Origin: Simkaniaceae bacterium
GTDB taxonomy: Bacteria; Chlamydiota; Chlamydiia; Chlamydiales; Simkaniaceae
Direction of reading: 5' to 3'
Assembly (NCBI GenBank): GCA_050248615.1
Contig: JBFWSA010000001.1
Location: forward strand, 36,841 to 100,840
DNA length: 64,000 nucleotides
Part shown: positions 2,555 to 47,598 of the stretch, piece after piece
How positions within the stretch are numbered: the first letter of the stretch is position 1
Layout of the letters: each line of letters starts with the position of its first letter
Notes under the pieces: model-generated
Database searches by the model: none
Told to the model about the DNA's origin: nothing
What the model saw: only the letters and a program-made list of their open reading frames with translations
Position numbers and translations under genes: made by a program

Positions 2555-2567
2555 CGCGAATTGCGGA

Positions 2568-12198: not shown

Positions 12199-12341
12199 TT
12201 GAGACCGTTGCAAAACTGCTTTCATTCAACTGAGCTGAGTTTTTTAGAGAAAATTTTTCTCAGCTTTTGAGGCCAGCTCTAATCAGAGCTGACCAATAAG
12301 AGAAAAAATTTAATCAAAATGGGTCAACTTAGGGTGAAAGC
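12199..12341. mobile_element. MITE-like element, family D (left end plus hairpin core; right TIR missing)
   Basis: End TTGAGACCGTTGCAAAA recurs at 63170 and as its reverse complement at 62318-62334. The core recurs at 14954-15027. GCTTTCA...TGAAAGC closes the stem. Confidence 0.75.
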
Positions 12342-12450
12342 TCTGGAGTCAGCTGAATAAACGCATTGTGTATATTCTTTGCTTGAAAAAATTTGAGGAC
12401 TTTGTAAATAGTGAGGAGTAGAACACATTTCATTCATTTGGGAGAAAAAA

Positions 12451-23675: not shown

Positions 23676-25019
23676 ATGCGTACCCTTCCAAAAACGATTA
23701 GTCCTATTCTAGAAGCGATTAAAACACGTAACTATACAGTTGCAGTTGTTGGGTTGGGTTATGTGGGTCTCCCCCTTCTCATGGCCTTTCATGAACAAAA
23801 GTTCTCCGTCTTAGGGATTGACATCGATGCTAATAAAATCGACTCGATCCAAAATGGGTTCTCTTACTTGAAACATATCCCCGATACGGCGATTCAAAAC
23901 CTGCAAGAATCGGATCGGTGCAGGGTCACAACCGATTTTTCCTTAGCAAAAGATGCCGATGCCCTGCTCATTTGTGTCCCCACTCCTCTCTCTCGCCATC
24001 GCGAGCCCGACCTTTCCTACGTGGAAAAAACTGTCAAAGCCCTCTCTCCTCATATGAAAAAAGGGCAAATTCTCATCTTAGAATCAACGACCTATCCCGG
24101 AACAACCGAGGAAGTTGTCAAGCCAATCTGTGAAAAGATTTCGGGACTAAAATCTGGAAAAGATTTCTATCTCGCTTATAGCCCCGAAAGAGAAGATCCC
24201 GGGAACTTACAATTCGAAACAGCAACCATTCCCAAAGTGGTGGGTGCAGAAGGAGAGGAAGCCCTAGAAATCGCTACTCTCCTCTACTCTGAAGCTATCC
24301 AAAAAGTGGTCCCCGTCTCCAGCACAAGAACGGGGGAGGCTGTCAAGCTTCTCGAAAATATCTTTCGTTCGGTAAATATCGCTCTTGTCAATGAACTTAA
24401 AATCGTTTTCGACAAAATGGAGATTGATATCCATGAAGTGATCGAAGCAGCGAAGACGAAACCCTTCGGATACATGCCCTTTTATCCCGGACCTGGACTC
24501 GGCGGCCACTGTATCCCCATCGACCCTTTTTACCTCACATGGAAAGCGCGAGAACTGGGGATTCATACCCGTTTCATTGAGCTCGCAGGAGAGATCAACA
24601 CGGCCATGCCCCACTATGTGATCAAACGCACTATGGAGGCGCTCAACAGTCAGAAAAAAGCGGTAAACGGGAGTCGCATTTTGTGTATTGGCCTTGCCTA
24701 CAAACCCAACATCGGGGACTGTCGAGAGTCTCCTGCCTTTACAATTATGGACCTCCTCCAAGCCCAAGGAGCTGAAGTGGAATACTTTGACCCTTACATC
24801 CCCGAGGTCCCCCAAACACGCGAACATAAAAATTGGCACAAGAAAAAGTCGATCATTTGGGATAAAAAGGCTCTCTCTTCATTCGCTGCCGCTATTGTCA
24901 TTACCCATCATAGCAGTATCCCCTACCCAGACCTCCTCGCCGCCTGTCCCTTGATTATCGACACCCGTAATGCCTGCGCCGATTATCCTTCAAAACCTAG
25001 CCAAGTCTGGAAGTCATGA
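23676..25019 (+). CDS. Nucleotide-sugar dehydrogenase (UDP-GlcNAc 6-dehydrogenase, WbpA/WecC-like)
   Basis: GLGYVGLP, ICVPTP, LESTTYPGTT, SPEREDPG, GPGLGGHCIPIDP. Confidence 0.93.
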   Translation: MRTLPKTISPILEAIKTRNYTVAVVGLGYVGLPLLMAFHEQKFSVLGIDIDANKIDSIQNGFSYLKHIPDTAIQNLQESDRCRVTTDFSLAKDADALLICVPTPLSRHREPDLSYVEKTVKALSPHMKKGQILILESTTYPGTTEEVVKPICEKISGLKSGKDFYLAYSPEREDPGNLQFETATIPKVVGAEGEEALEIATLLYSEAIQKVVPVSSTRTGEAVKLLENIFRSVNIALVNELKIVFDKMEIDIHEVIEAAKTKPFGYMPFYPGPGLGGHCIPIDPFYLTWKARELGIHTRFIELAGEINTAMPHYVIKRTMEALNSQKKAVNGSRILCIGLAYKPNIGDCRESPAFTIMDLLQAQGAEVEYFDPYIPEVPQTREHKNWHKKKSIIWDKKALSSFAAAIVITHHSSIPYPDLLAACPLIIDTRNACADYPSKPSQVWKS

Positions 25020-26092
25020 AAATTCTCAATATCGTCGGAGCCCGTCCTAATTTCATGAAAATGGCTCCTCTCCTTGCAGCCATGCAGAAAAGCGTTAAAA
25101 TCACCCCCCTTCTATTGCATACAGGACAACACTACGACTACAAAATGTCCCAGGTGTTTTTCGATAACCTCGGACTCAAAGAGCCCGATATCTTTTTGGA
25201 GTGTGGAGGAGGATCTCACGCTACACAAACAGCCAAAATCATGCTCTCTTTTGAACCCATCCTTCTCAACAATCCGGTAGATCTAGTCGTTGTCGCAGGA
25301 GATGTCAACTCCACCCTTGCCTGCAGTTTAGTTGCCAGTAAACTCCACATCCCCCTTGCCCATATCGAGGCAGGACTCCGCAGTTTTGACCGAGAAATGC
25401 CCGAAGAAATTAACCGCATCGTGACCGATAGCCTCTCCGATTACCTCTTCACAACCTGTGAAGATGCCAATAAAAATCTCCTCAAAGAGGGATGTGCACC
25501 TGAGAAGATCCACTTTGTGGGTAATCTCATGATCGATACCCTTTGCCTGATGCTCCCAAAAGCGCGGGCCTCTTCGATTCATCAAGACCTCGCTTGCCCT
25601 CCGACCTATGGATTAATCACGCTCCACCGCCCTTCGAACGTTGATTCTCCCGCAACCTTTTCTGGGATTCTCGACTCACTTGAAGCCATCCAAAAAGATC
25701 TTCCCCTCATCTGGCCCCTCCATCCTCGCAGTAAAAGTGCGATTGAAAAACACGGGTTTGGAAAGAGAATCGCTTCTCTCGCTAACTTAAAAATCATCGA
25801 CCCTCTCGGTTATATTGACAATCTCTCGTTAATGGATAAAGCGCGCGTGGTCCTTACCGATTCGGGGGGAATTCAAGAAGAGACAACAGTGCTTAACGTT
25901 CCCTGCCTCACGCTCCGTAAAAATACCGAGCGTCCCATCACCATTACCGAAGGGACTAACCGCTTAGTCGGCGTTGAAACCCAAAACATCTTAGAAGGAT
26001 TCCATGCGATCGCAACCATCTCCCCTAAATCGCCCCCTCTTTGGGATGGGAAAACAGCCTCTCGAATCGTCAAAATCCTGGAGGCTTTATGA
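25016..26092 (+). CDS. wecB: UDP-N-acetylglucosamine 2-epimerase (non-hydrolysing)
   Basis: GARPNFMK, HTGQHYD, GDVNSTLA, HIEAGLRS, TDSGGIQEE. Confidence 0.95.
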   Translation: MKILNIVGARPNFMKMAPLLAAMQKSVKITPLLLHTGQHYDYKMSQVFFDNLGLKEPDIFLECGGGSHATQTAKIMLSFEPILLNNPVDLVVVAGDVNSTLACSLVASKLHIPLAHIEAGLRSFDREMPEEINRIVTDSLSDYLFTTCEDANKNLLKEGCAPEKIHFVGNLMIDTLCLMLPKARASSIHQDLACPPTYGLITLHRPSNVDSPATFSGILDSLEAIQKDLPLIWPLHPRSKSAIEKHGFGKRIASLANLKIIDPLGYIDNLSLMDKARVVLTDSGGIQEETTVLNVPCLTLRKNTERPITITEGTNRLVGVETQNILEGFHAIATISPKSPPLWDGKTASRIVKILEAL

Positions 26093-30089: not shown

Positions 30090-30095
30090 ATCACT

Positions 30096-32254: not shown

Positions 32255-32299
32255 CTAAGTATACTGATACACTACATTGATAAAAAAACTCTGAGTTAA

Positions 32300-34733: not shown

Positions 34734-36322
34734 CAAATCAAACACTCGTCATTAAGGAAAGTGTTCTTTCTCAAGAGGATAAAGAAAATTTCATTCATAT
34801 TGACTATTCTACTTTAAAAACGTGGTGTAAATCCGGAAAAATTTTTCAAAAATTTCGTAATTATCACGATGTTATTTTTTATTTAGATACAAGTCCCCTA
34901 TATCGACGTGCTGTTATTGTAGGACTGCTCGGCTATTTTCTCAAAAAAAAACGTGTAACAATTAAATATGCTAACCAAATAGAAGTAAAAGTTACTCTCC
35001 TATTTCTTTTTAAACGCTTAAGCATTTTTGTAAGAGATCTTCTATCAAAACCATTTTTTTTAAATAATCTTAATAAAAAAATAGAACATCTGCATCAAAA
35101 TATTCCTACCATGCAAACACTTCCTACAACAGGTTCTCCTTATTACATAAGAACTGATTTTCATTTTATGCTCCTAGCCGGAGGTTCTGTAGGACACATT
35201 GCAGGAGTTCTAAATAACTTAGAAAATGAAGGGAATGCACCCCCTTTACTCTTCAGTTGTACAAAGATCCCTACAGTGAAAAAAGGAATCCCCTGTCATC
35301 TGATTTTACCGGATGACAAATTTCTAGATTTTAATAATTTCCCCAACTTTGCTTTTTCTTCAACCTACACGAAAAAAGTGGGGCATTGGATGGAAAAACA
35401 TCCCCCTCGATTTATCTATGAGCGCTTCAGTTGTGGTAGTATTTCTGGAGTGGAGCTCTCTCAAAAATATCATATTCCTCTCATATTAGAATATAATGGA
35501 TCTGAAGTTTGGGTAAGCAAACATTGGGGCAAAAAATTTCATCACGAAAATATTTTCCTAGCAATTGAAGATCTCAACTTGCGGGGCGCACAACTGATTG
35601 TCGTTGTAAGTGCTCCCTTAAAAGAGCAATTAGTGGAGCGGGGAATAGATCCCCACAAAATCCTGGTGAACCCCAATGGAGTGGATCCCCAAAAATACAG
35701 CCCTGAGATTGATGGATCTCCTAAAAGAGAAGAGCTAAAAGTAAAAGATAAAATCGTGATTGGATTTATCGGCACTTTTGGGAAATGGCATGGGGCTGAG
35801 GTGCTCACGGAGTGTTTTGGGAAACTCTTAGACGAGTATAGAGAAAAGATCCACCTCCTCATGATTGGAGATGGGATCATGATGTCAGAGGTTACTCAGA
35901 AGATTCATGATTACCAGATGGAGAGCTATGTGACCTTGATGGGGATGATCCCTCAATCAGAGGCACCCGAGTATTTAGCTGCCTGCGATATTTTAGCCTC
36001 TCCCCATGTTCCCAATAGCGATGGCTCCAAGTTTTTTGGCTCTCCGACAAAGCTATTCGAATACATGGCGATGGGGAAAGGGATTGTTGCTTCAGATCTC
36101 GATCAAATTGGAGAAGTCCTTGAGCATAAGAAAACAGCTTACCTTGTCAAGCCAGGTGATCAAGAGGCTTTAGTCCAGGGACTCAAAGTGCTAATCGAGG
36201 ATCCCGACTTGCGCCAAACTTTGGGGATAAACGCCCGAGAAGAAGTCGTTAAAAATTACACCTGGAAACAACATACCCATAAAATCCTAGAAAAACTCAA
36301 AGAGCTATGTCCCTCCGCCTGA
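34730..36322 (+). CDS. GT4-family glycosyltransferase
   Basis: GGSVGH, PNGVD, GFIGTFGKWHG, SPTKLFEYMAMG. Confidence 0.92.
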   Translation: MTNQTLVIKESVLSQEDKENFIHIDYSTLKTWCKSGKIFQKFRNYHDVIFYLDTSPLYRRAVIVGLLGYFLKKKRVTIKYANQIEVKVTLLFLFKRLSIFVRDLLSKPFFLNNLNKKIEHLHQNIPTMQTLPTTGSPYYIRTDFHFMLLAGGSVGHIAGVLNNLENEGNAPPLLFSCTKIPTVKKGIPCHLILPDDKFLDFNNFPNFAFSSTYTKKVGHWMEKHPPRFIYERFSCGSISGVELSQKYHIPLILEYNGSEVWVSKHWGKKFHHENIFLAIEDLNLRGAQLIVVVSAPLKEQLVERGIDPHKILVNPNGVDPQKYSPEIDGSPKREELKVKDKIVIGFIGTFGKWHGAEVLTECFGKLLDEYREKIHLLMIGDGIMMSEVTQKIHDYQMESYVTLMGMIPQSEAPEYLAACDILASPHVPNSDGSKFFGSPTKLFEYMAMGKGIVASDLDQIGEVLEHKKTAYLVKPGDQEALVQGLKVLIEDPDLRQTLGINAREEVVKNYTWKQHTHKILEKLKELCPSA

Positions 36323-38178
36323 TCAAACGCGCGCTGCGCCTCCCTCCCCATATTGTCTTGTTGAAACTCCTCCGTATGGCGAAAAACCGTTGGCACCAGT
36401 ATCGTCGGGAACAAAGAGACCAAAAATACCCTACCTATTCTTCCTATCAGGGGAAGCTTAGTTCTTTCGTCACTCTTCCCCATCACGTTCCTCAATATAC
36501 GAAAGATCTCCTAAGTCACTCCTTTGATTTACTCGGGAGTGGTCCTGTAGAGGTCAAATATGGGCTCAAAGCCCCAGGTCTTGAAGGACATGTCTACCCG
36601 AGTCAAGCCGCTTTACCTCTAAACAACCGGATCAACCCCAAAAATCTAGACTATGCGGAAAAAGTGTGGAGTCATCTCGATCCCGATTATACTCCCCTGG
36701 ATTGGCAAATCGATTTTAAATCAGGATACCGCTGGGAGGAAAAAACACCCAGCCATAAAATTGCTTATGGGCACCTTCCCGGAGTCGATGTCAAAGTTCC
36801 CTGGGAGCTCGCACGCATGCAGCATCTCCCCCAACTCGCCTGGGCTTATGGAGAGACTAAAGAGGAAAAATATGTGCGGGAGTTTCAAAATCAAATCCTC
36901 GATTTCATTGCCACCAATCCTCCCCGCTTTGGTGTCAACTGGAGCTGCACCATGGATGTGGGCATCCGGATAGCAAATTGGCTGATCACTTATGATTTGA
37001 TGCAATGTTACGGAGCCTCTTTCTCACCAGAATTTGAAACCTTCTTCATTTCGAGTGTCTATGATCATGGGAAGCATATCATTCACCATTTAGAATGGAT
37101 GCCGACGTTCCGAAGCAATCATTACTTAGCCAATATTGCTGGACTCCTTTTTGTAGGAGCCTATCTAAGCGGCTGTGAAGAGTGGCTAGACTTCGCTATC
37201 GCTGAGTTTATCAAAGAAGTCCCTCTCCAGTTTCATCCAGATGGCTCTTCTTTTGAAGGGTCTACAAGTTACCACTGCCTCTCTGCACAAATCGTTGCTT
37301 ATACCTCGGCTTTAGCCATCTCCGTTAAAGGAGAGCGGTGTTTTCCTCAGGAGTATTATGAACAGCTCCATAAGATGGCCCTATTTGTCCAAGATATGAC
37401 TAAACCCAATGGGGCAGTTGTCCAAATCGGCGACCATGATAGTGGCTATCTCTTCCGCCTTTTCCCCCCTTACGATCAACACCTCAATCGACAACTCTTA
37501 ATCGATGAACTCCACTTCAAAAGTCTCTATCCCCACCCCTTTCCCCTCTGCAAAGAACCCTCACACACGTTCATCTCGGGGGATTTAACTCTATTAAAAG
37601 AGACCTTTCCTAAAACACAGATTGCCTTTCCTTATAAAAAAGAAAGGATCGATTGTAGGGCTTACCCCGATTTTGGAATGTATATCTATCGTAGTCCCCA
37701 TCTCTTTCTATCAGTACGCGTCGGATCGATTGGCCATTTGGGGCGAGGAGGTCATGCCCATAACGACCAACTCAGTGTTGAACTCGTCATCGATGGAAAA
37801 GAAATTGTCGTCGATCCAGGAACCTATCTCTATACACCGCTTCCGAAAAGGAGGAATGATTATCGCTCCGTCACAGCCCATTTCGCCCCCCAAATTTTGG
37901 GGAAAGAGCCGAGTGGGATTGAATCAGGAGTGTTTATCCTAGATAGAGATCCTAAAGGAAAATGCCTCCATTTTGATCGCCACACCTTTTTAGGGATGCA
38001 TACAGGTTATGGTTTCCCCGTCTATCGTTTGATTCAGTTAGGGGATCAGATTGTCATTACTGATTATTCTACTAAAGATCCCCTTGTTCCCCTCGAAAAG
38101 GTCCTCAAACAGGTACAACAGGTCCCCTTTTCTCCCGGTTATGGAATGATTAATTATGAAAATAACAATCATTGTTGA
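36307..38178 (+). CDS. Heparinase II/III-like (alginate lyase family) protein of polysaccharide loci
   Basis: KVPWELAR, NPPRFGVNW, NHYLAN, EGSTSYH, GHAHNDQLS, DPGTYLY. Confidence 0.88.
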   Translation: MSLRLIKRALRLPPHIVLLKLLRMAKNRWHQYRREQRDQKYPTYSSYQGKLSSFVTLPHHVPQYTKDLLSHSFDLLGSGPVEVKYGLKAPGLEGHVYPSQAALPLNNRINPKNLDYAEKVWSHLDPDYTPLDWQIDFKSGYRWEEKTPSHKIAYGHLPGVDVKVPWELARMQHLPQLAWAYGETKEEKYVREFQNQILDFIATNPPRFGVNWSCTMDVGIRIANWLITYDLMQCYGASFSPEFETFFISSVYDHGKHIIHHLEWMPTFRSNHYLANIAGLLFVGAYLSGCEEWLDFAIAEFIKEVPLQFHPDGSSFEGSTSYHCLSAQIVAYTSALAISVKGERCFPQEYYEQLHKMALFVQDMTKPNGAVVQIGDHDSGYLFRLFPPYDQHLNRQLLIDELHFKSLYPHPFPLCKEPSHTFISGDLTLLKETFPKTQIAFPYKKERIDCRAYPDFGMYIYRSPHLFLSVRVGSIGHLGRGGHAHNDQLSVELVIDGKEIVVDPGTYLYTPLPKRRNDYRSVTAHFAPQILGKEPSGIESGVFILDRDPKGKCLHFDRHTFLGMHTGYGFPVYRLIQLGDQIVITDYSTKDPLVPLEKVLKQVQQVPFSPGYGMINYENNNHC

Positions 38179-38821
38179 TGCTTTTCGTGCTTTTGCCACT
38201 GCATCATATGCATTAGAGAAAGACCCCCAAAATTATTACTTAACAAACTCTTGTGTATCTGTTTCTCAACTGGCCCAATCCGCTCATGATCCCCTACTTA
38301 TTGGAAAACCAGAAATCGGTTCTATACTTACCTACCACATTCCCAACTCCCCTACAAGAGTAAAGGAAACTCCTATTTTAGGAAGAGATGTGATCCATCG
38401 AACAGCAGCAGGCGCTTTAGGAATTTTAAAAGCAACCGATGCTGACCTGATCTTAGGTGCGAGTTTTGTAAATGCAGATGCAACTGCAGCCTATGTTCGC
38501 TTGTACAAAGGAGCCCAAGTAAAAATTGTTCCCATGGGACATGAGGGAACAACACCCTCATTTGAAGATGACCTCTGTGCAGAATATATTGATTCTCTCA
38601 TTAGAAATGAGTGGAAGGATCTAAGCCCATTTATCGACAAACTCAAAGATGGGCCTGGCAAGTATTTTTTTGGGGAAGATCAATGGCAATACCCCAAAGA
38701 AGACTTTGATTTGTGTATAAAAACAAGACGTTTTCCTTATGTTATTGTTGCAAAGATACAAGGAAACTACGCATGTTTAAAAAGGGTAGATGTTCAACTT
38801 CCTCAACCATATCAAGTATAA
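38156..38821 (+). CDS. ComB-like (2-phosphosulfolactate phosphatase family) phosphatase
   Basis: IIVDAFRAFAT, NSPT, HRTAAGA, ASFVNA, EDDLCA. Confidence 0.8.
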   Translation: MKITIIVDAFRAFATASYALEKDPQNYYLTNSCVSVSQLAQSAHDPLLIGKPEIGSILTYHIPNSPTRVKETPILGRDVIHRTAAGALGILKATDADLILGASFVNADATAAYVRLYKGAQVKIVPMGHEGTTPSFEDDLCAEYIDSLIRNEWKDLSPFIDKLKDGPGKYFFGEDQWQYPKEDFDLCIKTRRFPYVIVAKIQGNYACLKRVDVQLPQPYQV

Positions 38822-39461
38822 GATCCCGAATCCCACGACCTTTCCATTTAAGTGCATTAAGCTTTTGCTTTGTCATAGTATTCCAATCTTCACGACTAGT
38901 AATCTTCTTAATTTTGACCATATAATCAAAAACCGGAGTATTTAATGCAAAATGCATGGGATGAATCACAAGAACCTTAACTCCCTCTTGGAGAAGCCTT
39001 TTTCTTAATGAATCATCCACCTCAAGAGAATGCTTATGCCATAAATACCCCCCATCTTCCATAAAAATAGGAACTTCCAGAAATCCAAAACGATCTCTAA
39101 AAGGAGAAATAACTTCTAAATCACTACAAACGTTAGAGGAAATGCGCATTCCCGCTTCAGCCATGGCTTGTTTCGATTGATTACAGGTTTTAAAACGATG
39201 GCACCGAAACACAGGACAATTATGAGGAAGAGCCATCACATAATCTACAACTTGATTAATTGTAGATCCATGAGATGACTCCGAATCAAAGTAAGGATGC
39301 AGTCCTACCTCTAATTCACTTAAACAAGCTTCAACTCTAGAAGAGCGATGAGTAATAAAAACAGTAGGGTTGATCTTTCTCTTTTGAAAAAAATCTAACG
39401 TTTCTTCAATCGCCGGCTCTGGGGCCCAATCCAAATCTAATGTAATAATTAGCCCCTTCAT
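38742..39461 (-). CDS. Polysaccharide deacetylase-like protein (WbmS-like, NodB fold)
   Basis: ITLDLDWAP, TVFITH, EVGLHP, RCH, PIFMED, HPMH. Confidence 0.75.
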   Translation of the reverse strand: MKGLIITLDLDWAPEPAIEETLDFFQKRKINPTVFITHRSSRVEACLSELEVGLHPYFDSESSHGSTINQVVDYVMALPHNCPVFRCHRFKTCNQSKQAMAEAGMRISSNVCSDLEVISPFRDRFGFLEVPIFMEDGGYLWHKHSLEVDDSLRKRLLQEGVKVLVIHPMHFALNTPVFDYMVKIKKITSREDWNTMTKQKLNALKWKGRGIRDLILDMVEEVEHLPFLNMRSFLVSLQQ

Positions 39462-40381
39462 CGCAGGATCTCATGAAACTGTTTAAAACGCCTTTCATCA
39501 ATATCATGACGTAAAAAAAGCTCTTCCATAGAAGAATAACTGCGAAGATCCTCTGTCCGCTGACTCGTTGTCCAGGAATCCCCATCTCTCATGTATTGGG
39601 CATTCCCATAAGATAAAATGTTAAAAAGAGAGGCATTCATCTCTCTATTATCTTTAAAGTGCAATTGAGTACCTCTTCCATGCAAAGCTTCCCTTGCATG
39701 GGCGGCAAAAGAGTTAAACACCTCTTGAGAAATAGCATGCTTCTGATCTTTTTCTGGAGCATCGTAAGACATGTACTGGTAAAACTTCCACCGCGCTACT
39801 TTTCCTTTTGCTTCTTCAATTGCATTCAAAATAAAGCTCAATTCATTTGCCAAAGACATGTGATTTTTTTGGCTTATTACACTGTGAAGTTTCAATTCAA
39901 TACCACATTTCGTAAGACGGCTACAGACATGGACAATACGATCGAAATACTGATGAAATTTCTGATTATTTCTTCCAATAGAAGTCAAAAAGTTATCTTG
40001 GGCTCCATCAATTGTGACAGCAACCATATCGACAACACCTTCCATCTCAGAAATCACATTTTCATCTAAAAATGTGCCGTTGGTGTACACTTCGATTTCT
40101 AGATTTTTTGCTGGGTCTTTGCTTTTATACTGACGGATATGACGGAGGAGTTCAATAAATCCGCTAGGGGGACGTTTTCCAAAAATTACAACTTCTCCTC
40201 CTGACAGTGTTAATCTTCGAAAATTTAACCTCTCATACAGATGGGAAATAAATTCCTTCTTTGCCTCTAAATCAAGCTCTGCTCTGAGTTGATGAGACGC
40301 ATTTTCCAAGACACAATAGCTACAACTTAAATTACACCGATTTGTAACCATCCAGTACCCTTTATAATAAGTTTGCGACAA
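39458..40381 (-). CDS. Radical SAM protein with viperin (RSAD2)-like motifs
   Basis: CNLSCSYC, LTLSGGE, YTNG, VTIDG, LKLHSVISQKN, RWKFYQ, DNREMNAS. No C-terminal Cys-rich SPASM domain. Confidence 0.8.
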   Translation of the reverse strand: MSQTYYKGYWMVTNRCNLSCSYCVLENASHQLRAELDLEAKKEFISHLYERLNFRRLTLSGGEVVIFGKRPPSGFIELLRHIRQYKSKDPAKNLEIEVYTNGTFLDENVISEMEGVVDMVAVTIDGAQDNFLTSIGRNNQKFHQYFDRIVHVCSRLTKCGIELKLHSVISQKNHMSLANELSFILNAIEEAKGKVARWKFYQYMSYDAPEKDQKHAISQEVFNSFAAHAREALHGRGTQLHFKDNREMNASLFNILSYGNAQYMRDGDSWTTSQRTEDLRSYSSMEELFLRHDIDERRFKQFHEILR

Positions 40382-40391
40382 ATATTATCTC

Positions 40392-42026
40392 CTAAATAGT
40401 TGAAAATTCATTGATTAATACCCCATCAAAATAGCGAATAAGCTCCTTATCACTAGGTCCATCTCCAAAAACTTGCACTCTTCCAGACCAACGAATGTGA
40501 TTTAATAAACGATGAACGGCACGTAATTTAGAAGCTTCCCATGGCAAGATAAAGGTTTCACCTTCATAACGTTCTATCCGATGGCCCATAAGTAATTGAG
40601 AAGTGTCTCTACAAACTACCTGTAAAATTTGACCATCATATTCTATCAATCTATAGTCTGAAATAATTTTGCTAAGAGCTGCAACCTGATCCGACAGCAA
40701 TGGAGTAACCCACAAAGTTTTTCCTTCACCATCCGATACTACCCCCCCACTATAACTTATGATCCAATCTACCTGAAGACCGTAGGCAGCTATTTTTTTT
40801 AAAATGTCTTCAACGCCTCTTGCTGTACAAATCACTCGAAAGGGAAATCTTTTAAAAGAATCAAAGGATCTTTTAGTTCTTTCTTCATCATATTTATGGT
40901 AAAGAGTTCCATCAAAATCACTGATTGCTAGCATTTCCTTACGAAAAATCTTTGCAAGTAAGAGTCGAGATAAAAAGCGTTCATTAAAAAGAAATCCAAT
41001 CTCAAGAGATTTTCGAGATAAACTCTCATAGCAAGAAATCATCGTTTCAATATGCAAAATCACCTCATCATCCTCATCAACAAAATGGATGTAAGGGGCA
41101 CCTTCTAAAAATTCAGCAGCAGCATTTCCAGCTCGCTTCACAATATTCGGAAGCCCAGCAGCTAACGTCTCAAAAATTGCCCTACCAAAAGTCTCACATT
41201 TAGCCATTGATAAATGGAAGTGCTTGTCGTTTAAATAAATATAAAGGTGCTCATGAGAGACATAACCAAGAAAATGAACAGAATCTTGTAAATTCAAAAA
41301 CCTTACTTCTTTGATAAGAGTTTTAAAATATTTTTGATCTTGGATAGGACCAATAAGAGCAAGAGTGCTCCCTAAAAAATGCTGGCGTAATTTTGCAAAA
41401 AGCCGAATTAAACCTATCGTATCTTTTTGGGGTTTAATACTTCCTAGGGAACAAAATCGAATCGGCTCTTGAAGTGAACGTAGATGAGGGTTTAAAGCAG
41501 TTGTTTCTACTCCACGTGGGACAACATAAATGGATTCTTCAGGAACTGAATATTCTTTTAAGAGTTGCTCTTTTTCGAAATAACTCGGTGTAAGAATATT
41601 TCTGGCATTTGCCAAGACATTTTGTTCTCTTTCAAAATATTGATCAGGAACATTTTCACCAGAGAGTCTATAGGAAGGAGTTAAAAACATCGGAAACGTC
41701 CACACTTCTTTATCTGGGCTTAAGGGAAAATTGACTTGCCCAAATTGCATCGAGATATGCGCAAAAATAATATGGGTAAACTCTTTTTCTACTTCTTTGA
41801 CTTTTTCTCCAATAAAATCAGCATTAGTGAGACGTCTGATAAAACGATTCGAGGAATTATTGGGATAGTGAAAATGCCATCGGACACTCTCCTCTCTTTC
41901 ACCTCCAAATTGCATAATGCTTAAGGAAGATTTCAACTCGCGTCTTAGAGTACTCACCAAACGAGCACCTCCATCACGTTGTGCCATATCAGGACTGCAT
42001 TTTTCAGTTACAAGAAGCACTTTCAC
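40392..42026 (-). CDS. GT4 glycosyltransferase fused to a HAD-IIB (Cof/SPP-like) phosphatase; probable GTG start at 42026
   Basis: VVPRGV, LGSIKPQK, ETFGRAIFE (EX7E); HAD motifs SDFDGTL, CTAR, SKL, FGDGPSD. Confidence 0.85.
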   Translation of the reverse strand: MKVLLVTEKCSPDMAQRDGGARLVSTLRRELKSSLSIMQFGGEREESVRWHFHYPNNSSNRFIRRLTNADFIGEKVKEVEKEFTHIIFAHISMQFGQVNFPLSPDKEVWTFPMFLTPSYRLSGENVPDQYFEREQNVLANARNILTPSYFEKEQLLKEYSVPEESIYVVPRGVETTALNPHLRSLQEPIRFCSLGSIKPQKDTIGLIRLFAKLRQHFLGSTLALIGPIQDQKYFKTLIKEVRFLNLQDSVHFLGYVSHEHLYIYLNDKHFHLSMAKCETFGRAIFETLAAGLPNIVKRAGNAAAEFLEGAPYIHFVDEDDEVILHIETMISCYESLSRKSLEIGFLFNERFLSRLLLAKIFRKEMLAISDFDGTLYHKYDEERTKRSFDSFKRFPFRVICTARGVEDILKKIAAYGLQVDWIISYSGGVVSDGEGKTLWVTPLLSDQVAALSKIISDYRLIEYDGQILQVVCRDTSQLLMGHRIERYEGETFILPWEASKLRAVHRLLNHIRWSGRVQVFGDGPSDKELIRYFDGVLINEFSTI

Positions 42027-43095
42027 GTCTAAACAAATCCTTGTATTGAGCAAAAATATGGCTCCAACAGTAAGTAGGATCGAATTTCCCCTTACTAGGC
42101 AGGTTTTGAAGTGTTTGAGCAATCACTTTTACTATTTGCTCTTCTGGAAAAAGATCAACAAGTATTCCCTTATCACCCTTCACAATTTCTGGTAAAGCTC
42201 CACTATTTCCAGCAATCACAAAAGTCCCAGCAGTCAAAGCTTCTAGAATTGAACGCCCCATTCCTTCCGAATGAATATAACGCCCCCCAGGAACTGATGT
42301 AAGAACATCTCCACTTAGTTGCATATAGACATCTGCGTTAGCAATCTCCTGGCAAGTTTTCTGATTATTTAATACCCCAAGAAATGTGACACTTCCCAAA
42401 AGATTAATTTCTTGTGCAAAAGCTTTCACTTCATCCAGCAACGGTCCGTCACCTGCTAATCTCACATTTAATGAAAAACCTAGTTTTACAAGCTCCTTTA
42501 TTATCCGGAGAAAAAGTTTATGATTTTTGTAGGGAACAAAACGAGCTGCGGAAAAGATGCGTAGCGGAGAACTCACCTTTTTTTTTCCTGATTTTAAAGC
42601 CTCGCTATTGACTCCTCCAACAGATCGAAAAAAAGAACAAGTAATGCCTAAATCACGTAGGCGACTTTCTGTATATACTGAATTTGTAATGAGTACATCT
42701 ATCGATTGATTAAGTACTTTAACCCAATAACGCTGTCTTAAAAAATGATCCAAAATATGGTTCTTGACTAAGGGAGCTTTTAAGATTTCATTTCCCCCTG
42801 TCCTATAAAGGAATAATGCATTAGGAAATTGATTTCTGATTTCCTCTAGTTCTTCAATCCAGCGCCCGCTATTAAAAAAAACAATCTCAGGATTAAAATG
42901 ATGATAGTTGATTGCCTCTCCCGTTTCTTTAAATACAAGGGTATCTCTTCCATCTTTATCTTTAGAAACCACATCTAATAATGGAAACTGTAAGTGATCT
43001 TTAAAATAATCGATAAAATACCCTCCATGCATCTCCATTCCTCCTGAAAGGGGAGGCAAACGATCTGCAAAAAATAAAATCCCTCTTTTCTTCAT
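42004..43095 (-). CDS. GT4-family glycosyltransferase
   Basis: PPLSGGME, AARFVPYKN, AGDGP, EGMGRSILE (EX7E), GALPEIV. Confidence 0.9.
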   Translation of the reverse strand: MKKRGILFFADRLPPLSGGMEMHGGYFIDYFKDHLQFPLLDVVSKDKDGRDTLVFKETGEAINYHHFNPEIVFFNSGRWIEELEEIRNQFPNALFLYRTGGNEILKAPLVKNHILDHFLRQRYWVKVLNQSIDVLITNSVYTESRLRDLGITCSFFRSVGGVNSEALKSGKKKVSSPLRIFSAARFVPYKNHKLFLRIIKELVKLGFSLNVRLAGDGPLLDEVKAFAQEINLLGSVTFLGVLNNQKTCQEIANADVYMQLSGDVLTSVPGGRYIHSEGMGRSILEALTAGTFVIAGNSGALPEIVKGDKGILVDLFPEEQIVKVIAQTLQNLPSKGKFDPTYCWSHIFAQYKDLFRRESASCN

Positions 43096-43143
43096 CGCTA
43101 CTACTCTAAAAAACCAAAAGTAAGAATGCTACAAAAGAAATTA

Positions 43144-44973
43144 TTATTTTGTCATGCACTTAGATTGCACTGAAGGTAAGAACCCTCCTATCTGCGCATC
43201 CCAAAGAGACTTATAATGTCCATTCTTATTAAGGAGGTCTTCATGAGAACCATCTTCAATAATCTTTCCATTATCAAAAACTAAAATCCGATCCATATTC
43301 AAAAGAGTTGAAAGGCGGTGTGCAATGATGAGTGTTGTTTTTTCTTTCATCACCTCAAACAAAGTCTCTTTAATGGCTTTTTCTGTGACCGCATCTAATT
43401 GAGATGTTGCTTCATCAAGTATCAGCAGGGGAGCATTTTTTAGTAAAACTCTTGCAATAGCTACTCGCTGCCTTTCTCCTCCTGACAACTTCACACCCTG
43501 TTCCCCAATAAGCGAATGATACCCTCTTGGGAGTTGGAGAGCAAACTCATGTACATGTGCTTTTTTAGCTGCTTCAATCACTTCCTCATCTGAAGCACTC
43601 ACTCTCCCAAAGCGAATATTATCCATGAGTGTTCTGTGAAATAGGGAAGGATTTTGTGGAATCAGACCGATACAAGAGCGAAGCGTATTTTGATCAACAG
43701 ATTGAATATTTTGCCCGTCAACTAAAATCTGTCCATGAGTGACATCATAAAGACGCAAAAGCAAATTGATAAATGTCGACTTCCCACTACCCGAGTACCC
43801 CACTACCCCCACTTTCTGACCAGAGTGGATCGTCAGAGACTTATTAATAAAAAAAGGCCTATCAGGAGTATAGTGAAAACCTACCCGATCAAAAACAATT
43901 TTCCCAGCTTTTACTTTAAGTGGAGGAGCGTTTTTTTTATCAACAACTTCTACAGGTGAAAAAATAACCTTTAAAGAATGACGGCACTTTCCCCAAGCTT
44001 CATTTAGTTGATCGATCAGCTCAGTACCACTCCAAACATTCTCTGTGACATACAAGGTTGAACCTAAAATAAAAGCAAAGTCTCCAACCGTTATTAAATC
44101 AGAGATTTTAAAACGAATTAAAAAATAAATAATAAATCCAACAAGACAGGTAATAGAAAACCCCTGAAAAAAATAGAACTTAATTAAGAATCTCTCTTTT
44201 TTTTGAAACATTTCCGTCATCTGATTTAATGATTTTTTAATAAACGTTCCTTCAAAAACTCTCCTTACAAACAGCTTTACACTAGAAAAATTTGTAATAC
44301 TATCCACCACTCTTCCCGCAACATGTGATTGAGCTGTGGCCAGATCATTAGCTAAGTTTGAAATTTTTTTAGAAAATCTTAAACTCGTTAAAACAAAACA
44401 CAACGTCCAAATGAGTAGAGCCATAGAAAAAATAGGATGAATACAATACATCGTAATTAAGGCCGCTATTAACTGAGCTGCAGACCTTATCAACCGAATC
44501 GATAGATTACTTCCAATCCGCTCAAAATTTTCAGCCATAATCATGATATTATTCGCGATCGCTCCTCCAAGCGTCTCTTGAAAAAAGCGTTCTGATTGAT
44601 TATGAACCCGATCAAACAAACTTTGAATAAGATGATTCTTGATCACTGGAACTATTCTAAGATTAATGTAATTAATGACTCTCCAACAGATGTTATGCAT
44701 CTCAAAATTCATCACGACAAATATAGAAAATGCTAAAACAATTTTATTATTAATTGGCGAATCATTTAAAACATCTATTAAAATCTTAGTAAAAAAAGCA
44801 TTCAATAATCCATATATGCCTACAATTGATGCACATAGAGTTAAGGCTATAACTGATAACTTATAAGGTTTATAGAAACTCCAAAAAACCTTCCCTATAG
44901 AAGAAGGAGGTTCTTCAGCTAAAAAGTGAAATGATTTGACGGCTTCGCTCTTTCCAATCATGCTTCTCTGCAA
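43144..44973 (-). CDS. ABC exporter, fused TMD and ATPase (type IV, MsbA/Atm1-like); start uncertain (ATG 44961 likely)
   Basis: 6 TM helices; GYSGSGKST, LSGGERQR, LILDEATS, IAHRLST. Confidence 0.93.
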   Translation of the reverse strand: MQRSMIGKSEAVKSFHFLAEEPPSSIGKVFWSFYKPYKLSVIALTLCASIVGIYGLLNAFFTKILIDVLNDSPINNKIVLAFSIFVVMNFEMHNICWRVINYINLRIVPVIKNHLIQSLFDRVHNQSERFFQETLGGAIANNIMIMAENFERIGSNLSIRLIRSAAQLIAALITMYCIHPIFSMALLIWTLCFVLTSLRFSKKISNLANDLATAQSHVAGRVVDSITNFSSVKLFVRRVFEGTFIKKSLNQMTEMFQKKERFLIKFYFFQGFSITCLVGFIIYFLIRFKISDLITVGDFAFILGSTLYVTENVWSGTELIDQLNEAWGKCRHSLKVIFSPVEVVDKKNAPPLKVKAGKIVFDRVGFHYTPDRPFFINKSLTIHSGQKVGVVGYSGSGKSTFINLLLRLYDVTHGQILVDGQNIQSVDQNTLRSCIGLIPQNPSLFHRTLMDNIRFGRVSASDEEVIEAAKKAHVHEFALQLPRGYHSLIGEQGVKLSGGERQRVAIARVLLKNAPLLILDEATSQLDAVTEKAIKETLFEVMKEKTTLIIAHRLSTLLNMDRILVFDNGKIIEDGSHEDLLNKNGHYKSLWDAQIGGFLPSVQSKCMTK

Positions 44974-46036
44974 AAGACTTATAATCTCCAGTCGACTTTA
45001 AATCTTTTAATATATGGATAAATTCTTTTTTAGATGAGGCAAGATGTGCAGGGGATTTAAGATGTTCTAATTCATCCCATTTAGTGCTAACTACTGGAAT
45101 CCCACTTGCCATATATTCATAAAGCTTAAGAGGGTTGACCCGGTGAATCAATTCAGGATGCCCTTTTACATCAAATGGAATTAGACCTACAGTTGCATGT
45201 TGCAAATAGGCGGGGATTTCCTTCCAAGACCGCACACCTAACAAATGTAAATTAGGCAAGTGTTGAAGTTTTTTCGTTTCATTTGGCCCAATAAGCACAA
45301 AATTCATATTAGGCAGCGCACGCGCTGCTGACATAAGGAGATCTGTATCAAACCATTCTCGAATAGCTCCTACATAAACTGCAATGGGACCTTTTAAGTT
45401 TTGATATTCTAGGGGGACTTCCCGAGAGTGAGCAAAATGTGAAAAATCTACACCGTTTGGTACAAACTCCATACGTTTGGGTTGGGCACTTTTTACATAC
45501 GTTTCAAGCCCTTTTGCTGTGTAAATAACACAATCAACCTCTCTCATAAGTTTTTCTTCTAAATGCTTTTTTGCAACAGCTGTTTGTTGAAAAGCCTTAT
45601 TATAATCAGCCAAACGGTAAATAGAATATTTTGGAGAAAGAGTTTTCATTAAAAATGCATGGGTTGGGCTATCAAAATAAAGTAAATCAGGTTTATCAAA
45701 GCCTTGATGTTTTAGTTTAGAAGTTAAAGATGGAAATGAAAAAATCTGCCAGTTTTTATGTAGCCACTCAGAACGCAAAAGAGGGTGATTATAAGGCGAA
45801 AGTAAACTTCCAGAAAGATATGTCCAAATATTTTCCTCTCTTATCCCTCCTTTACAATAAATTTCAAAACGGCTTTTTAACCCAGGTGTTTGTTTAAGAA
45901 GATGAGCTGGAGAGATGGGATCTGAAATAAACGCAACTTTCCACCCTTGACATGCAAAAGCTCTTGCAAAATGATGACTTCCCACCTGAAAAGGGCTTGT
46001 CCAATAGTTGGCACAAGCCATAACAATTTTTTTCAT
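44915..46036 (-). CDS. Glycosyltransferase (GT-B, GumK/TuaH-like)
   Basis: VPNGVD, YVGAIREWFD, GLIPF, NPLKLYEYMASG. Confidence 0.88.
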   Translation of the reverse strand: MKKIVMACANYWTSPFQVGSHHFARAFACQGWKVAFISDPISPAHLLKQTPGLKSRFEIYCKGGIREENIWTYLSGSLLSPYNHPLLRSEWLHKNWQIFSFPSLTSKLKHQGFDKPDLLYFDSPTHAFLMKTLSPKYSIYRLADYNKAFQQTAVAKKHLEEKLMREVDCVIYTAKGLETYVKSAQPKRMEFVPNGVDFSHFAHSREVPLEYQNLKGPIAVYVGAIREWFDTDLLMSAARALPNMNFVLIGPNETKKLQHLPNLHLLGVRSWKEIPAYLQHATVGLIPFDVKGHPELIHRVNPLKLYEYMASGIPVVSTKWDELEHLKSPAHLASSKKEFIHILKDLKSTGDYKSFAEKHDWKERSRQIISLFS

Positions 46037-46118
46037 GAACTACTCTTTTTGATCTATCACACTTAAATTACCATAATGAATACTTTCATTCCGACATAAA
46101 AACCCCTCCTATATTAAA

Positions 46119-46195
46119 GTTATACCGAAATGGTTTCAAAAATTGGATTTTCGGCTACGCTAAAAAATCAATTTTTGAAACCATTTCGGTATAAC
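46119..46195. mobile_element. Short palindromic element E (internally deleted relative of family B)
   Basis: Perfect 27 bp IR GTTATACCGAAATGGTTTCAAAAATTG / CAATTTTTGAAACCATTTCGGTATAAC; aligns without gaps to the family B end. Confidence 0.8.
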
Positions 46196-46208
46196 AATAG
46201 CCCCTCTC

Positions 46209-47144
46209 TTACATGATGCTGATCACAAGTCCTTCCCAGTCGTGCTGCTGAATAAAAGAGTCGATCTTAGTTAAAGGAACCCCAGTCGCGTGGGCAAATC
46301 CAGGAGTATAGAGAAGTAAGTTGTTTTTTGAAGCTTCATGGGCCATGCGCTCTCCAAATCCTCCCACAAAGCTCTTCCACTTAAAGTGATTTCCTTTGAT
46401 TTTAGGAAGGCGTTTTTTAAGGTCCTGACGAGAGTTAATGTATCCCACAAAACGTAAAGGATGGACAGGGGCGATTTTATCTCCCAGTTTTTCCATCTCT
46501 TTTTTCTTAAGGAGCAATTCGAATACATTGAGATCGGCAAGTTTCTTAATGAGCTTCTCAATGTTCTTTTGATCTTCTGCATTGAGACGGAGATTATAAT
46601 ATAGCTGAGGATTTGGAGCGTTGCCCTCATTCACAGGAACCGGAGCCCGCATGACGCGCACTTCTGGAAGGGTCTCTCGACATAACGTTTGTATAAGCTG
46701 CGTCAGAGCTTCCGTCCCTAAAGAAAGATGCTCCCAGGCAATTTCTTCGGCTAGTCTCTGTTCATAAAGAGCCCCTGCATTTTCTAGTACATCTAAAAAA
46801 GCTTTCTTTGTCTGTGTAAATTCTTCTAAAGAGAGTCCCTCCTGGAGTTTCTGGGTAAATCTTGTATAGAAACTGGATAGCCCATCAAGATTTCCATCAA
46901 AAATGAACTTTCCCCCTCTATCTGGAGTAAAAACATAGGCAGTCTTTTCACCTTCAGTAACTTGAGAATGGATCGAGTAAAAAAGAAACTCTTGAAGCAG
47001 GGCCTCTTCCGGATCTTCAGAGGAGGATGAGGCAAGAGGATACTCTACTTTAACATCAGGAGAAGGCCATAGGGCATGAAGAGGTCCTCCTAAGAGGATC
47101 ATGAGAACCATAAGAAATTGCATCGCCAACCTTTTCATAACCAA
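46209..47144 (-). CDS. Exported hypothetical protein with a chlamydia-type C-terminal domain
   Basis: Signal peptide; C-terminal VHPLRF...FKWKSF motif recalled from chlamydial hypothetical proteins; RBS AAGGAG. Confidence 0.65.
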   Translation of the reverse strand: MVMKRLAMQFLMVLMILLGGPLHALWPSPDVKVEYPLASSSSEDPEEALLQEFLFYSIHSQVTEGEKTAYVFTPDRGGKFIFDGNLDGLSSFYTRFTQKLQEGLSLEEFTQTKKAFLDVLENAGALYEQRLAEEIAWEHLSLGTEALTQLIQTLCRETLPEVRVMRAPVPVNEGNAPNPQLYYNLRLNAEDQKNIEKLIKKLADLNVFELLLKKKEMEKLGDKIAPVHPLRFVGYINSRQDLKKRLPKIKGNHFKWKSFVGGFGERMAHEASKNNLLLYTPGFAHATGVPLTKIDSFIQQHDWEGLVISIM

Positions 47145-47322
47145 CTCCTTTATGAAGAATTAAATCAGAAAAATGTAATAAAAAAATTCAATATTATTCA
47201 ACCTCTTTTTCTCTCCAGTTTCACTAAATCAAAAAAATATTTGAAAAATATTGAAAAATCTTAGATGTATAAGTTTGAAAGATTAGTATTTTATTTAACC
47301 AGGTCTTATTGAGGAGAAAACA

Positions 47323-47598
47323 ATGAAAAATGTTCCTAAGTCTCAATTACATAGACTTTGCCCCAAGTGCTTAGCTTTGTCGATTGGAATCGTTTGGGGG
47401 ATTGCTGTCCTACTTACAGGATGGATCGCAATGACCGGATGGGGATATCAATTTGTTGACACGATGTCTTCTGTTTACACCGGATACTCAGCTTCTTTCG
47501 TAGGTGGTATCGTGGGTGGCATCTGGGCATTCTTCGTCGGAGCTATTCTTGGCGGAGCCATTGCTATGGTGCACAACAAGCTGATGAACCGATCGTAG
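47323..47598 (+). CDS. Small Gly-rich membrane protein (family often labelled bacteriophage holin-like)
   Basis: 91 aa with 2-3 TM helices; SVYTGY...GGIVGGIWAF; RBS GAGGAG; downstream hairpin. Confidence 0.6.
   Translation: MKNVPKSQLHRLCPKCLALSIGIVWGIAVLLTGWIAMTGWGYQFVDTMSSVYTGYSASFVGGIVGGIWAFFVGAILGGAIAMVHNKLMNRS

Follow-up and report, generated by a model that had tools for sequence, protein, structure and literature searches.

A recurrent gene cassette pairing GT4 glycosyltransferases with a viperin-related radical SAM enzyme in a Simkaniaceae bacterium

A compact run of genes in a chlamydia-like bacterium raises the question of what these genes make together and whether they belong to the glycan locus that surrounds them. 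They lie at positions 38156-46036 of the window, that is, the whole 64,000-nucleotide stretch of contig JBFWSA010000001.1 from a Simkaniaceae bacterium (genome G000) that was analysed here. The initial annotation had described the run as a horizontally acquired unit of seven genes, coding for three glycosyltransferases (GT), one of them fused to a phosphatase, an ATP-binding cassette (ABC) exporter, a radical S-adenosylmethionine (SAM) enzyme, a deacetylase and a ComB-like phosphatase. The seven-gene content was confirmed by Pfam, NCBIfam and PDB matches, and the genes are tightly packed, with gaps and overlaps of -80 to +48 nt. With moderate confidence, we interpret the part at 38156-44915 as a self-contained, horizontally spread biosynthetic cassette that makes a modified sugar product and is neither a part of the O-antigen island nor a viperin defence gene.

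The inserted cassette and its recurrence

The cassette and its genes are as follows.

38152..44923, no strand: inserted cassette, about 6.8 kb, 37.0% GC, not at the same site in a same-genus genome
38156..38821, plus strand: ComB-like protein (2-phosphosulfolactate phosphatase family), 221 aa; PF04029 E 2e-21, 76.5 bits against a cutoff of 26.4
38742..39461, minus strand: WbmS-like hydrolase, putative de-N-acetylase with a glycoside hydrolase/deacetylase fold, 239 aa; PF22537 E 8e-25, PDB 3hft (WbmS) E 3e-12
39458..40381, minus strand: radical SAM enzyme, 307 aa, with cluster motif C16-x3-C20-x2-C23 (CNLSCSYC); NF038283 106 bits against a cutoff of 180
40392..42026 (open reading frame, ORF, to 42122), minus strand: fusion of a family 4 glycosyltransferase (GT4) and a Cof-type HAD-IIB domain, called GT4B-HAD; PF00534 E 5e-16, PF08282 E 1e-9
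42004..43095, minus strand: second GT4, called GT4A, 363 aa; PF00534 E 7e-22
43144..44973, minus strand: MsbA-like half-size ABC exporter (transmembrane and nucleotide-binding domains), 609 aa; PF00664 and PF00005, MsbA_rel 358 bits against a cutoff of 780

The boundaries were set by comparison with another genome of the same genus (G292, contig C51). There, a heparinase-like gene that matches the window up to 38151 directly abuts a convergent GumK-like glycosyltransferase gene that matches 44924-46021. The region 38152-44923 is therefore an insertion, and the glycosyltransferase gene starting at 46036, with which the unit had been thought to begin, is a resident that also occurs in the cassette-free G292. 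G292, a genome that is 90% complete, yielded no match to the radical SAM enzyme. As the surrounding resident island is itself absent from three other genera of the family, the cassette forms one island nested in another; no direct repeats flanking the insertion were found. The AT-richness that had been ascribed to the block proved modest (37.0% GC compared with 42.2% in the window and 46.6% in rho) and equals that of resident DNA at 30096-36322 (37.4%).

The ComB-like gene and the other cassette genes converge. At its ATG, the ComB-like gene shares 23 nt with the end of the resident heparinase-like gene. The true start of GT4B-HAD probably lies near 42026, because homologues align only from residue 33; transmembrane segments were found in none of the cassette enzymes except within this doubtful N-terminal extension of the ORF. 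Both transcription units are in a read-through position, the ComB-like gene behind the plus-strand operon and the genes from the ABC exporter to the WbmS-like hydrolase behind the GumK-like GT on the minus strand. A promoter and terminator scan of 37800-47400 gave no excess over shuffled sequences (24 vs 25.8 and 8 vs 7.5, respectively). Contigs of 151-516 nt from RNA libraries (four runs), 95-100% identical, cover parts of several cassette genes and the flanks. This is a weak hint of transcription, as such libraries can contain DNA and the contigs give neither strand nor level.

The gene set recurs in distant bacteria. The radical SAM enzyme is represented by more than 120 protein clusters at 63-76% identity, and among named genomes 14 loci encode its relatives. 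Ten of these loci are of type 1, one of them (L010) frameshifted. The hosts of the nine intact type-1 loci are Algichlamydia, a member each of Rhabdochlamydiaceae, Parachlamydiales and Chlamydiales, a Rickettsia endosymbiont, a Rickettsiaceae metagenome-assembled genome (MAG), Ca. Paracaedibacter symbiosus, a Myxococcota MAG and a MAG labelled 'Rhizobium'. In all nine, from four phyla, the genes stand in the order GT4A > GT4B > radical SAM > WbmS-like with a convergent ComB-like gene; in L005 a contig end cuts GT4A. The HAD-IIB domain is fused to GT4B in eight of the nine and is missing from L002. An own pair of WecC-like and WecB genes lies directly upstream in 6/8 assessable type-1 genome loci; the exceptions are L006 with a fused or truncated pair, L003 with only WecB, located downstream, and L004 with neither. 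In L006 (5541-7241, Ca. Paracaedibacter symbiosus), a WecC-like N-terminal domain is fused to a full WecB in a protein of 566 aa that lacks the remainder of the dehydrogenase; this organism may be able to do without the uronic-acid step. The cassette WecB passes the TIGR00236 cutoff of 210 bits (392 in L008, 414 in L007 and 251 in L013). The best match of the WecC-like dehydrogenase is UDP-N-acetylmannosamine (UDP-ManNAc) dehydrogenase, with 394-403 bits against a cutoff of 459. An orthologue of the MsbA-like ABC exporter adjoins the cassette in L002, where it is 49% identical to the exporter of the window, and in L008, where it is 37% identical; the exporter orthologues beside the cassette in L002 and in metagenome loci are 43-60% identical.

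The flanks of the cassette vary from locus to locus and comprise housekeeping genes, transposases, AbiEii, GmrSD and toxin-antitoxin genes, STAND and ankyrin proteins, and ABC-2 transporters (L007, L014). Neighbours related to polysaccharide or lipopolysaccharide (LPS) were seen in only two of the 14 genome loci, namely L003 (GT9 and GT4) and L011 (UDP-galactopyranose mutase). The initial annotation had suggested looking for the gene set outside polysaccharide loci; it does travel there as a unit, next to genes that are mostly not polysaccharide genes. The Myxococcota MAG that holds the intact locus L004 also holds the frameshifted copy (L010, 7272-12248), in which GT4A, GT4-HAD, the radical SAM gene and the WbmS-like gene are split across frames; this second copy may be a decaying duplicate or reflect sequencing errors.

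At 90% identity of the radical SAM enzyme, the 69 family loci contributed by metagenome contigs fall into 55 clusters; one locus is identical to the window and two to L013. The counts given here are per locus and are not dereplicated by species. In the 54 type-1 metagenome loci, GT4B was present in 36/36 assessable cases, HAD-IIB in 39/43, GT4A in 30/35, the WbmS-like gene in 41/45 and the ComB-like gene in 30/34. Half of those assessable (10/20) have their own WecB and WecC, and 11/25 have an MsbA-like ABC gene in the locus.

Type 2 comprises 12 metagenome loci and the genome loci L011-L013 and L015 (Bacillota, Acholeplasma), and the radical SAM enzymes of the genome loci are 33-37% identical. 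Its order is radical SAM > WbmS-like > HAD-IIB > GT4 > GT4 > WecB > WecC, with a free-standing HAD-IIB that is fused to the GT4 N-terminus in L015. The complement is constant in the metagenome loci (WbmS-like 11/11, HAD-IIB 11/11, GT4A 9/9, and GT4B, WecB and WecC 8/8 each). The ComB-like gene is absent from type 2, and a HAD_2 gene adjoins the radical SAM gene in 4/9 metagenome loci and in L012 and L013. A Ruminiclostridium MAG (L011, 9028-10518) has a HAD_2 domain and the viperin-like radical SAM enzyme in one ORF of 496 aa, which could be a real fusion or an assembly error. Another type-2 copy (L104, identical to L086) has two tandem large serine recombinase genes (phrog_95, E 5e-120 and 4e-136) directly upstream, at 985-3871; its contig is filed as viral, and other phage-like genes were not seen in its 12.8 kb.

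Type 3 (L051/L061, L054, L055 and L057) has a radical SAM enzyme 60-62% identical to the window's. The order is PTP-fold phosphatase > GT4B-HAD > viperin-like radical SAM > radical SAM-SPASM > second PTP-like protein, followed in L054 by an EamA transporter. The PTP-fold phosphatase carries HCLGGEHR[ST] (HCX5R) and scores 24-33 bits with PF03162, near the cutoff of 27. HAD-IIB is present in L054, L055 and L057 and missing from the L051/L061 copy. The only PDB relatives of the second radical SAM-SPASM enzyme are BtrN structures (4m7s/4m7t, E 8e-10). For the second PTP-like protein, no PDB relative was found at E 0.1, nor was the HCX5R motif. GT4A, WbmS-like, ComB-like and WecB/WecC genes are all lacking. 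A large ankyrin-repeat protein is encoded near the type-3 cassette at L054 (4687-10793).

Only GT4B, HAD-IIB and the radical SAM enzyme are common to all three types, and GT4A, the WbmS-like gene and WecB/WecC are gained and lost together across types. A further phosphatase is usually present and is drawn from interchangeable families (ComB-like, HAD_2 or PTP-fold). Across loci, the catalytic motifs are kept in the WbmS-like, GT4B and HAD enzymes. We also considered that unrelated accessory genes might have come together by chance and share no pathway, since the site is a variable island and other genera of the family lack the whole region at 23.6-47.2 kb. However, nine genome loci from four phyla keep the same order, as do dozens of metagenome loci set among unrelated genes, and all catalytic motifs are conserved, which makes this extremely improbable. 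The loci are not one recently spread clone either, because the identities range over 33-76%. The cassette represents a compact uncharacterised pathway conserved across phyla. Full-text literature searches found no description of the gene set or of the radical SAM family, which agrees with the earlier statement that no described system has this combination; subscription-only papers and bioRxiv supplements lay outside the search, and supplementary tables of viperin surveys could list these radical SAM proteins.

The distribution of the cassette is patchy. The radical SAM enzyme was found in 7/300 sampled genomes of the phylum, in none of the 25 further genomes scored from the family of the window (one more genome was not scored), and in 2/201 Rickettsiales, the query genome included, with one copy truncated. 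No match was found in 72,556 plasmid records. The window's PGK shares 57-58% identity with its counterparts in other chlamydial families and 41-45% with those of Paracaedibacter and the Myxococcota MAG. The corresponding values for the radical SAM enzyme are 65-69% for other chlamydial families, 70% for Paracaedibacter and 59-60% for the Myxococcota MAG. Compared with the drop in PGK, these flat values indicate that the cassette, conserved at 60-75% identity across phyla, lacks a phylum-level step of divergence. The single-gene cassette tree is poorly resolved, and a tree of five concatenated proteins from 10 type-1 cassettes is star-like; the AU test fails to reject monophyly of Chlamydiota (p 0.26). 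The trees alone therefore do not prove repeated transfer between phyla, and the case for transfer is made by the patchy distribution, the insertion and the flat identity across phyla. These data support the horizontal acquisition that the initial annotation had proposed. In the portion of PMC5751055 available to us, gene transfer among amoeba symbionts is described as frequent and includes a COG0438 glycosyltransferase; the cassette itself is not described in that portion.

Near-identical insert DNA is present in metagenomes from landfill, hot spring, freshwater, activated sludge, wastewater and sediment. At least half of the sampled insert words were found in 16 runs, or, after removal of four possible source runs, in 12 runs from nine studies. 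Near-identical copies were also seen in one RNA library. The obligate intracellular carriers (Chlamydiota, Rickettsiaceae, Paracaedibacter) keep few accessory pathways, so the cassette probably aids life in, or interaction with, the host.

The radical SAM enzyme and its relation to viperins

The best NCBIfam match of the radical SAM enzyme is viperin_w_prok (NF038283), with E 2e-30 and 106.3 bits, which is below the cutoff of 180; MoaA follows with 52 bits. The TIGR04278 viperin model gives 32 bits against a cutoff of 450. With the PADLOC pVip models, for which no curated cutoff exists, the enzyme reaches E 3e-31 and 2e-28 (98-107 bits), so automated defence scans may list the enzyme as a viperin. 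All seven of the strongest PDB sequence matches are viperins or viperin-like proteins. The AF2 model (pLDDT 94.9) gave the same picture: every Foldseek PDB match listed as far as rank 19 is a viperin or a viperin-like enzyme (TM 0.70-0.76 by query length). Mouse viperin 6q2p is among them (E 2e-17, TM 0.76/0.80), and SkfB, SuiB, anSME, DesII and MoaA come after the viperins. The designation as viperin-like was thus borne out by fold and profile. Among 1.8 billion cluster representatives, only 13 proteins matched at E <= 1e-30; beyond those, the matches were at E 1e-14 and weaker, and the full-length ones were about 280 aa. In the ESM Atlas, the only matches were generic clusters of radical SAM proteins.

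A tree of 24 family members and 61 relatives was built with a quick method and no formal outgroup. In this tree, the family is monophyletic (SH-aLRT 100) and, together with protein P0147, is sister (at 92) to the starred clade of 23 proteins. The motif N-[aromatic]-H before the cluster cysteines is a hallmark of viperins, and N-x-H is carried by 21 of these 23. All 24 family members have Y9-x-M11 (Y9-W-M11) in its place, and H166 where the relatives have N. The residues Y22, R55, Y145, D212, K243, Y282 and H303 are invariant and specific to the family. Its C-terminus reads F-[RK]-x-F-H-E, with the invariant H303, compared with R-G-G-x-Y-x-W in several rows of the viperin clade. Shared with the viperin relatives are CxxxCxxC, GGE, N101, D125, R137, K164, N173, W198-K199 and Q202; K164 and K199 may correspond to viperin's phosphate-binding lysines.

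Judged by sequence and predicted structure, the enzyme has a viperin fold and belongs to a discrete family sister to the viperins. The bit scores below both viperin cutoffs, the replaced N-x-H and the branching outside the N-x-H clade argue against calling the window's enzyme a viperin. The C-terminal extension is the part of the family that diverges most from viperins. According to the part of a viperin preprint available to us (10.1101/2023.09.13.557418), the beta-8 loop of this extension serves nucleobase recognition; the preprint uses MoaA as an outgroup, and the same part does not mention the present family. With viperin and pVip, the enzyme shares the partial TIM-barrel fold and the C-terminal extension. 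Unlike them, it is encoded together with glycosyltransferases, phosphatases and nucleotide-sugar enzymes, not alone or with a kinase. As the nearest relative of viperins, yet one set among genes of sugar assembly, the family bears on the origin of viperin chemistry and offers a new reaction to be found.

Given this kinship, the cassette might produce an antiviral or toxic nucleotide analogue. The radical SAM enzyme would dehydrate a nucleoside triphosphate (NTP) or nucleotide sugar, and the phosphatases and glycosyltransferases would make a glycosylated 3'-deoxy-3',4'-didehydro (ddh)-nucleoside. Profile, fold and tree all place viperins nearest to the enzyme, the lysines shared with them are conserved, and several phosphatases could strip a triphosphate. 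Defence-like neighbours also occur, namely AbiEii in L003, GmrSD in L004 and a DUF4011 helicase-nuclease in L015, and one type-2 copy lies next to the two large serine recombinase genes on the viral-classed contig. We nevertheless regard this as improbable. The enzyme scores below the NCBIfam viperin cutoffs (106 vs 180 and 32 vs 450), N-x-H has become Y-x-M in 24/24 members, the C-terminal tail differs, and the family branches outside the N-x-H clade. Moreover, the cassette has no kinase partner, WecB/WecC and the two GT4s point to sugar assembly, and the hosts are mostly obligate intracellular bacteria. The anti-phage role suggested earlier also lost ground, because N-x-H is absent from all 24 members, the kinase is lacking, and defence-like neighbours occur at only some loci.

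The proposed pathway and its alternatives

In other enzymes, fusion of a GT4 to HAD-IIB is the architecture for glycosylation of a phosphorylated small acceptor followed by removal of the phosphate. On this ground, GT4B, HAD-IIB and the radical SAM enzyme are read as the core of the pathway. We infer every chemical step and the product itself from the kinds of enzymes encoded. The GT4 domain of GT4-HAD would glycosylate a phosphorylated acceptor, and the fused HAD-IIB would then remove the phosphate, following the logic of sucrose-phosphate synthase/phosphatase and of MshA/MshA2. GT4A would add ManNAc or its uronic acid (ManNAcA), the donor being supplied by WecB/WecC, which are the cassette's own in other genomes and probably those of the resident island here. 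The WbmS-like protein, a putative metal hydrolase, would remove the N-acetyl group. The radical SAM enzyme would modify an intermediate bearing a phosphate or carboxylate, which its viperin-like lysines would hold; its radical reaction is most likely of the viperin/AprD4/BlsE type, that of a dehydratase or deoxygenating enzyme. The radical steps of viperin, AprD4 and BlsE are the basis for this analogy. The ComB-like phosphatase may act on a second phosphoester, and the MsbA-like ABC transporter may export or flip the product.

In the WbmS-like protein, D9, D11, H55, R86, H88, E135, D136, H167, H170 and N174 are invariant in 13/13 orthologues, a pattern that fits a metal-dependent hydrolase. 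The ComB-like protein is a member of the family and not ComB (coenzyme M) itself, with all eight NCBIfam ComB equivalogs at 26-45 bits against cutoffs of 175-440 and PDB 2z0j at E 5e-6. GT4B keeps the EX7E motif (ETFGRxIFE) in 14/14 sequences, and the fused HADs keep DxDGT in 11/11. The top Foldseek match of the GT4-HAD AF2 model (pLDDT 91.1) is sucrose-phosphate synthase 6kih (E 3e-15), with ManT, WaaG, MshA (3c4q), BshA, GlgM and HepE at indistinguishable E (~1e-14). Entry 7qsg, labelled 'D-inositol 3-phosphate glycosyltransferase', was considered as evidence for an MshA type and dropped, as its title names a methylmannose polysaccharide mannosyltransferase. By profile, the best solved relative of GT4A is PimB' (3oka/3okc, E 2.5e-24), with BshA next (5e-14); the PimB' match is ten orders of magnitude better than that of any other solved GT4 and covers mainly the donor-binding half. 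In type 2, the phosphatase is linked to the radical SAM enzyme, either adjacent as HAD_2 or fused to it in L011, and this counts in favour of the proposed pathway.

Several known systems share parts of this logic. Sucrose-phosphate synthase with an SPP-like domain (6kih, 2r60) has the same GT4-then-HAD-IIB architecture as GT4-HAD; however, the identity is about 15%, the cassette HAD is of Cof type (PF08282) and not S6PP, and the gene context is unrelated. In mycothiol (MshA, MshA2, MshB) and bacillithiol (BshA, BshB) biosynthesis, a GT4 acts on a small acceptor, phosphorylated in the case of MshA, and dephosphorylation and de-N-acetylation follow. The cassette likewise has a GT4, a phosphatase and a putative deacetylase, and MshA and BshA are among the nearest folds of GT4B. 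It differs in having a WbmS-like hydrolase (PF22537) where those pathways use an LmbE-family deacetylase, and a phosphatase fused to its glycosyltransferase. It also brings a radical SAM enzyme, an exporter, WecB/WecC and one more GT4. No Cys ligase or acetyltransferase of the mycothiol type was found in the cassette, and the ligase was found in no cassette type.

In the tailoring of 2-deoxystreptamine aminoglycosides (BtrM/BtrD/BtrN, AprD4), a GT4 and a deacetylase are combined with a radical SAM enzyme that performs a redox or dehydration reaction on a pseudo-oligosaccharide. The cassette has the same kinds of enzymes, and type 3 carries the BtrN-like second radical SAM enzyme. In contrast, the DOI synthase and aminotransferases are missing, the window's radical SAM enzyme is neither BtrN- nor AprD4-like, and the hosts are intracellular bacteria, not actinomycetes or bacilli. 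The mycothiol and aminoglycoside analogy drawn by the initial annotation thus gains some support from type 3. PimB', which makes phosphatidylinositol mannosides, is the relative suggested by the GT4A profile; the cassette, however, would make UDP-ManNAc(A) and not GDP-mannose and has no PI synthase. In blasticidin S biosynthesis, the glycosyltransferase BlsD is paired with the radical SAM enzyme BlsE, which acts on a uronic-acid glycoside. A uronic acid (ManNAcA) is suggested here as well by the WecC-like dehydrogenase of the cassette. On the other hand, BlsE (7vob) is not among the Foldseek matches of the radical SAM enzyme listed to rank 48, and the cassette has no nucleobase-handling genes.

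The most specific candidate for the acceptor is a cyclitol such as inositol phosphate. The hints are PimB' as the nearest relative of GT4A, the BtrN-like radical SAM enzyme and PF03162-type phosphatases of type 3, and the enrichment in intracellular bacteria, each of them weak. Inositol-1-phosphate synthase (PF01658) was not found in G000 or five other carrier genomes; a cyclitol acceptor would hence have to be imported. In its most detailed and rather doubtful form, the scheme would convert a phosphorylated cyclitol from host or diet (e.g., inositol phosphate) into an exported aminoglycoside-like amino-pseudo-oligosaccharide, with the viperin-sister radical SAM enzyme performing a deoxygenation, and the cassette would be exchanged among intracellular bacteria and gut Bacillota. 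If the cyclitol or aminoglycoside-like reading is true, viperin chemistry would be placed in a lineage that tailors sugars and cyclitols.

The cassette could instead decorate an envelope glycoconjugate, by building or modifying a short side branch with ManNAc(A), or a glycolipid, that is flipped by the MsbA/PglK-like ABC exporter (a PIM/GPI-like lipid anchored by phosphatidylinositol, or a product of the island). We consider this possible but rather unlikely. The insertion lies in an O-antigen-like island and is co-oriented with both resident operons, and in G000 the WecB donor comes only from that island. The exporter is of the MsbA/PglK/HepA kind, PimB' acts on a membrane inositol lipid, the title given by the depositor of 3hft places WbmS in a Bordetella O-antigen locus, and WaaG, ManT and HepE are among the fold neighbours of GT4B. 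Yet polysaccharide or LPS neighbours occur only in L003 and L011 of the 14 genome loci, and among the loci compared the window alone has the cassette within a glycan locus. Its carriers include not just Gram-negatives but also Bacillota and Acholeplasma, which has no cell wall. Pfam and NCBIfam annotation of 38156-44915 revealed no initiating phosphoglycosyltransferase, polymerase, ligase, Wzx/Wzy or ABC-2 exporter. Furthermore, the GT4-HAD-IIB fusion is typical of soluble phosphorylated acceptors, and all cassette enzymes lack transmembrane segments.

The interpretation as a self-contained sugar pathway, which we prefer, has to be set against several points that weigh on the other side. The chemistry of all six proteins is taken from family membership, and the name 'deacetylase' for WbmS-like proteins is the depositor's and not an assayed activity. 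GT4 similarity does not define the acceptor, and the structural matches of GT4B do not discriminate between acceptor classes, since enzymes of LPS and polysaccharide synthesis (WaaG, ManT, HepE) reach the same E as sucrose-phosphate synthase, MshA and BshA. A second phosphatase is not universal: none lies beside the radical SAM gene in 5/9 assessable type-2 metagenome loci or in L015. In G000, the cassette has no WecB/WecC of its own and sits in a glycan island, behind both operons and with the island's WecB, so that it may contribute to that glycan. A lipid-linked product would likewise suit an exporter of the MsbA/PglK kind. The lack of inositol-1-phosphate synthase in the six carriers examined is neutral with respect to a cyclitol acceptor.

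The resident glycan island and its surroundings

The genome G000 comprises 2.04 Mb in 69 contigs and encodes a TLC ATP/ADP translocase, DUF2709 and Legionella_OMP porins. The translocase and these porins are hallmarks of intracellular life. In the window, the translocase gene is followed by two divergent porin genes of the Legionella_OMP family (8586-13659). The features around the cassette are as follows.

23676..26092, plus strand: resident nucleotide-sugar dehydrogenase and WecB; TIGR00236 wecB 316 bits against a cutoff of 210, NDP-sugar dehydrogenase 422 bits
44915..46036, minus strand: GumK_N/TuaH-like GT, resident and outside the acquired cassette; PF22059 E 3e-16
46119..46195, no strand: palindrome with 33-nt arms (46119-46151 and 46163-46195, 94% complementary) and an 11-nt loop

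Upstream of the cassette, the O-antigen-like set occupies 23676-38178 on the plus strand. It consists of the nucleotide-sugar dehydrogenase, WecB, a GFO/ADH oxidoreductase fusion, an AsnB-type amidotransferase, three methyltransferases, Wzx, a GT4 and the heparinase II/III-like protein. A search with a cassette-type WecB as the query identified the resident WecB as the only one in G000, and the genes at 23676-26092 likely supply the sugar donor to the cassette in this genome. The island (23676-47144) also encodes the GumK-like GT and a protein that has a signal peptide and matches no Pfam family. The whole region of 23.6-47.2 kb, between the gene after rho and the PMI/ROK genes, is absent from three other genera of the family. 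In those genera, the gene after rho directly adjoins the PMI/ROK genes, and the island is specific to the window's genus.

The GumK-like GT has its orthologue in G292 and adjoins the cassette in no other locus. The palindrome that had been placed at the 5' edge of the block is real and unique in the window, with two matches (both arms) and 0 expected by chance. It does not belong to the unit, as its position is beyond the insertion, between the start of the GumK-like GT gene and the stop of the gene at 46209-47144.

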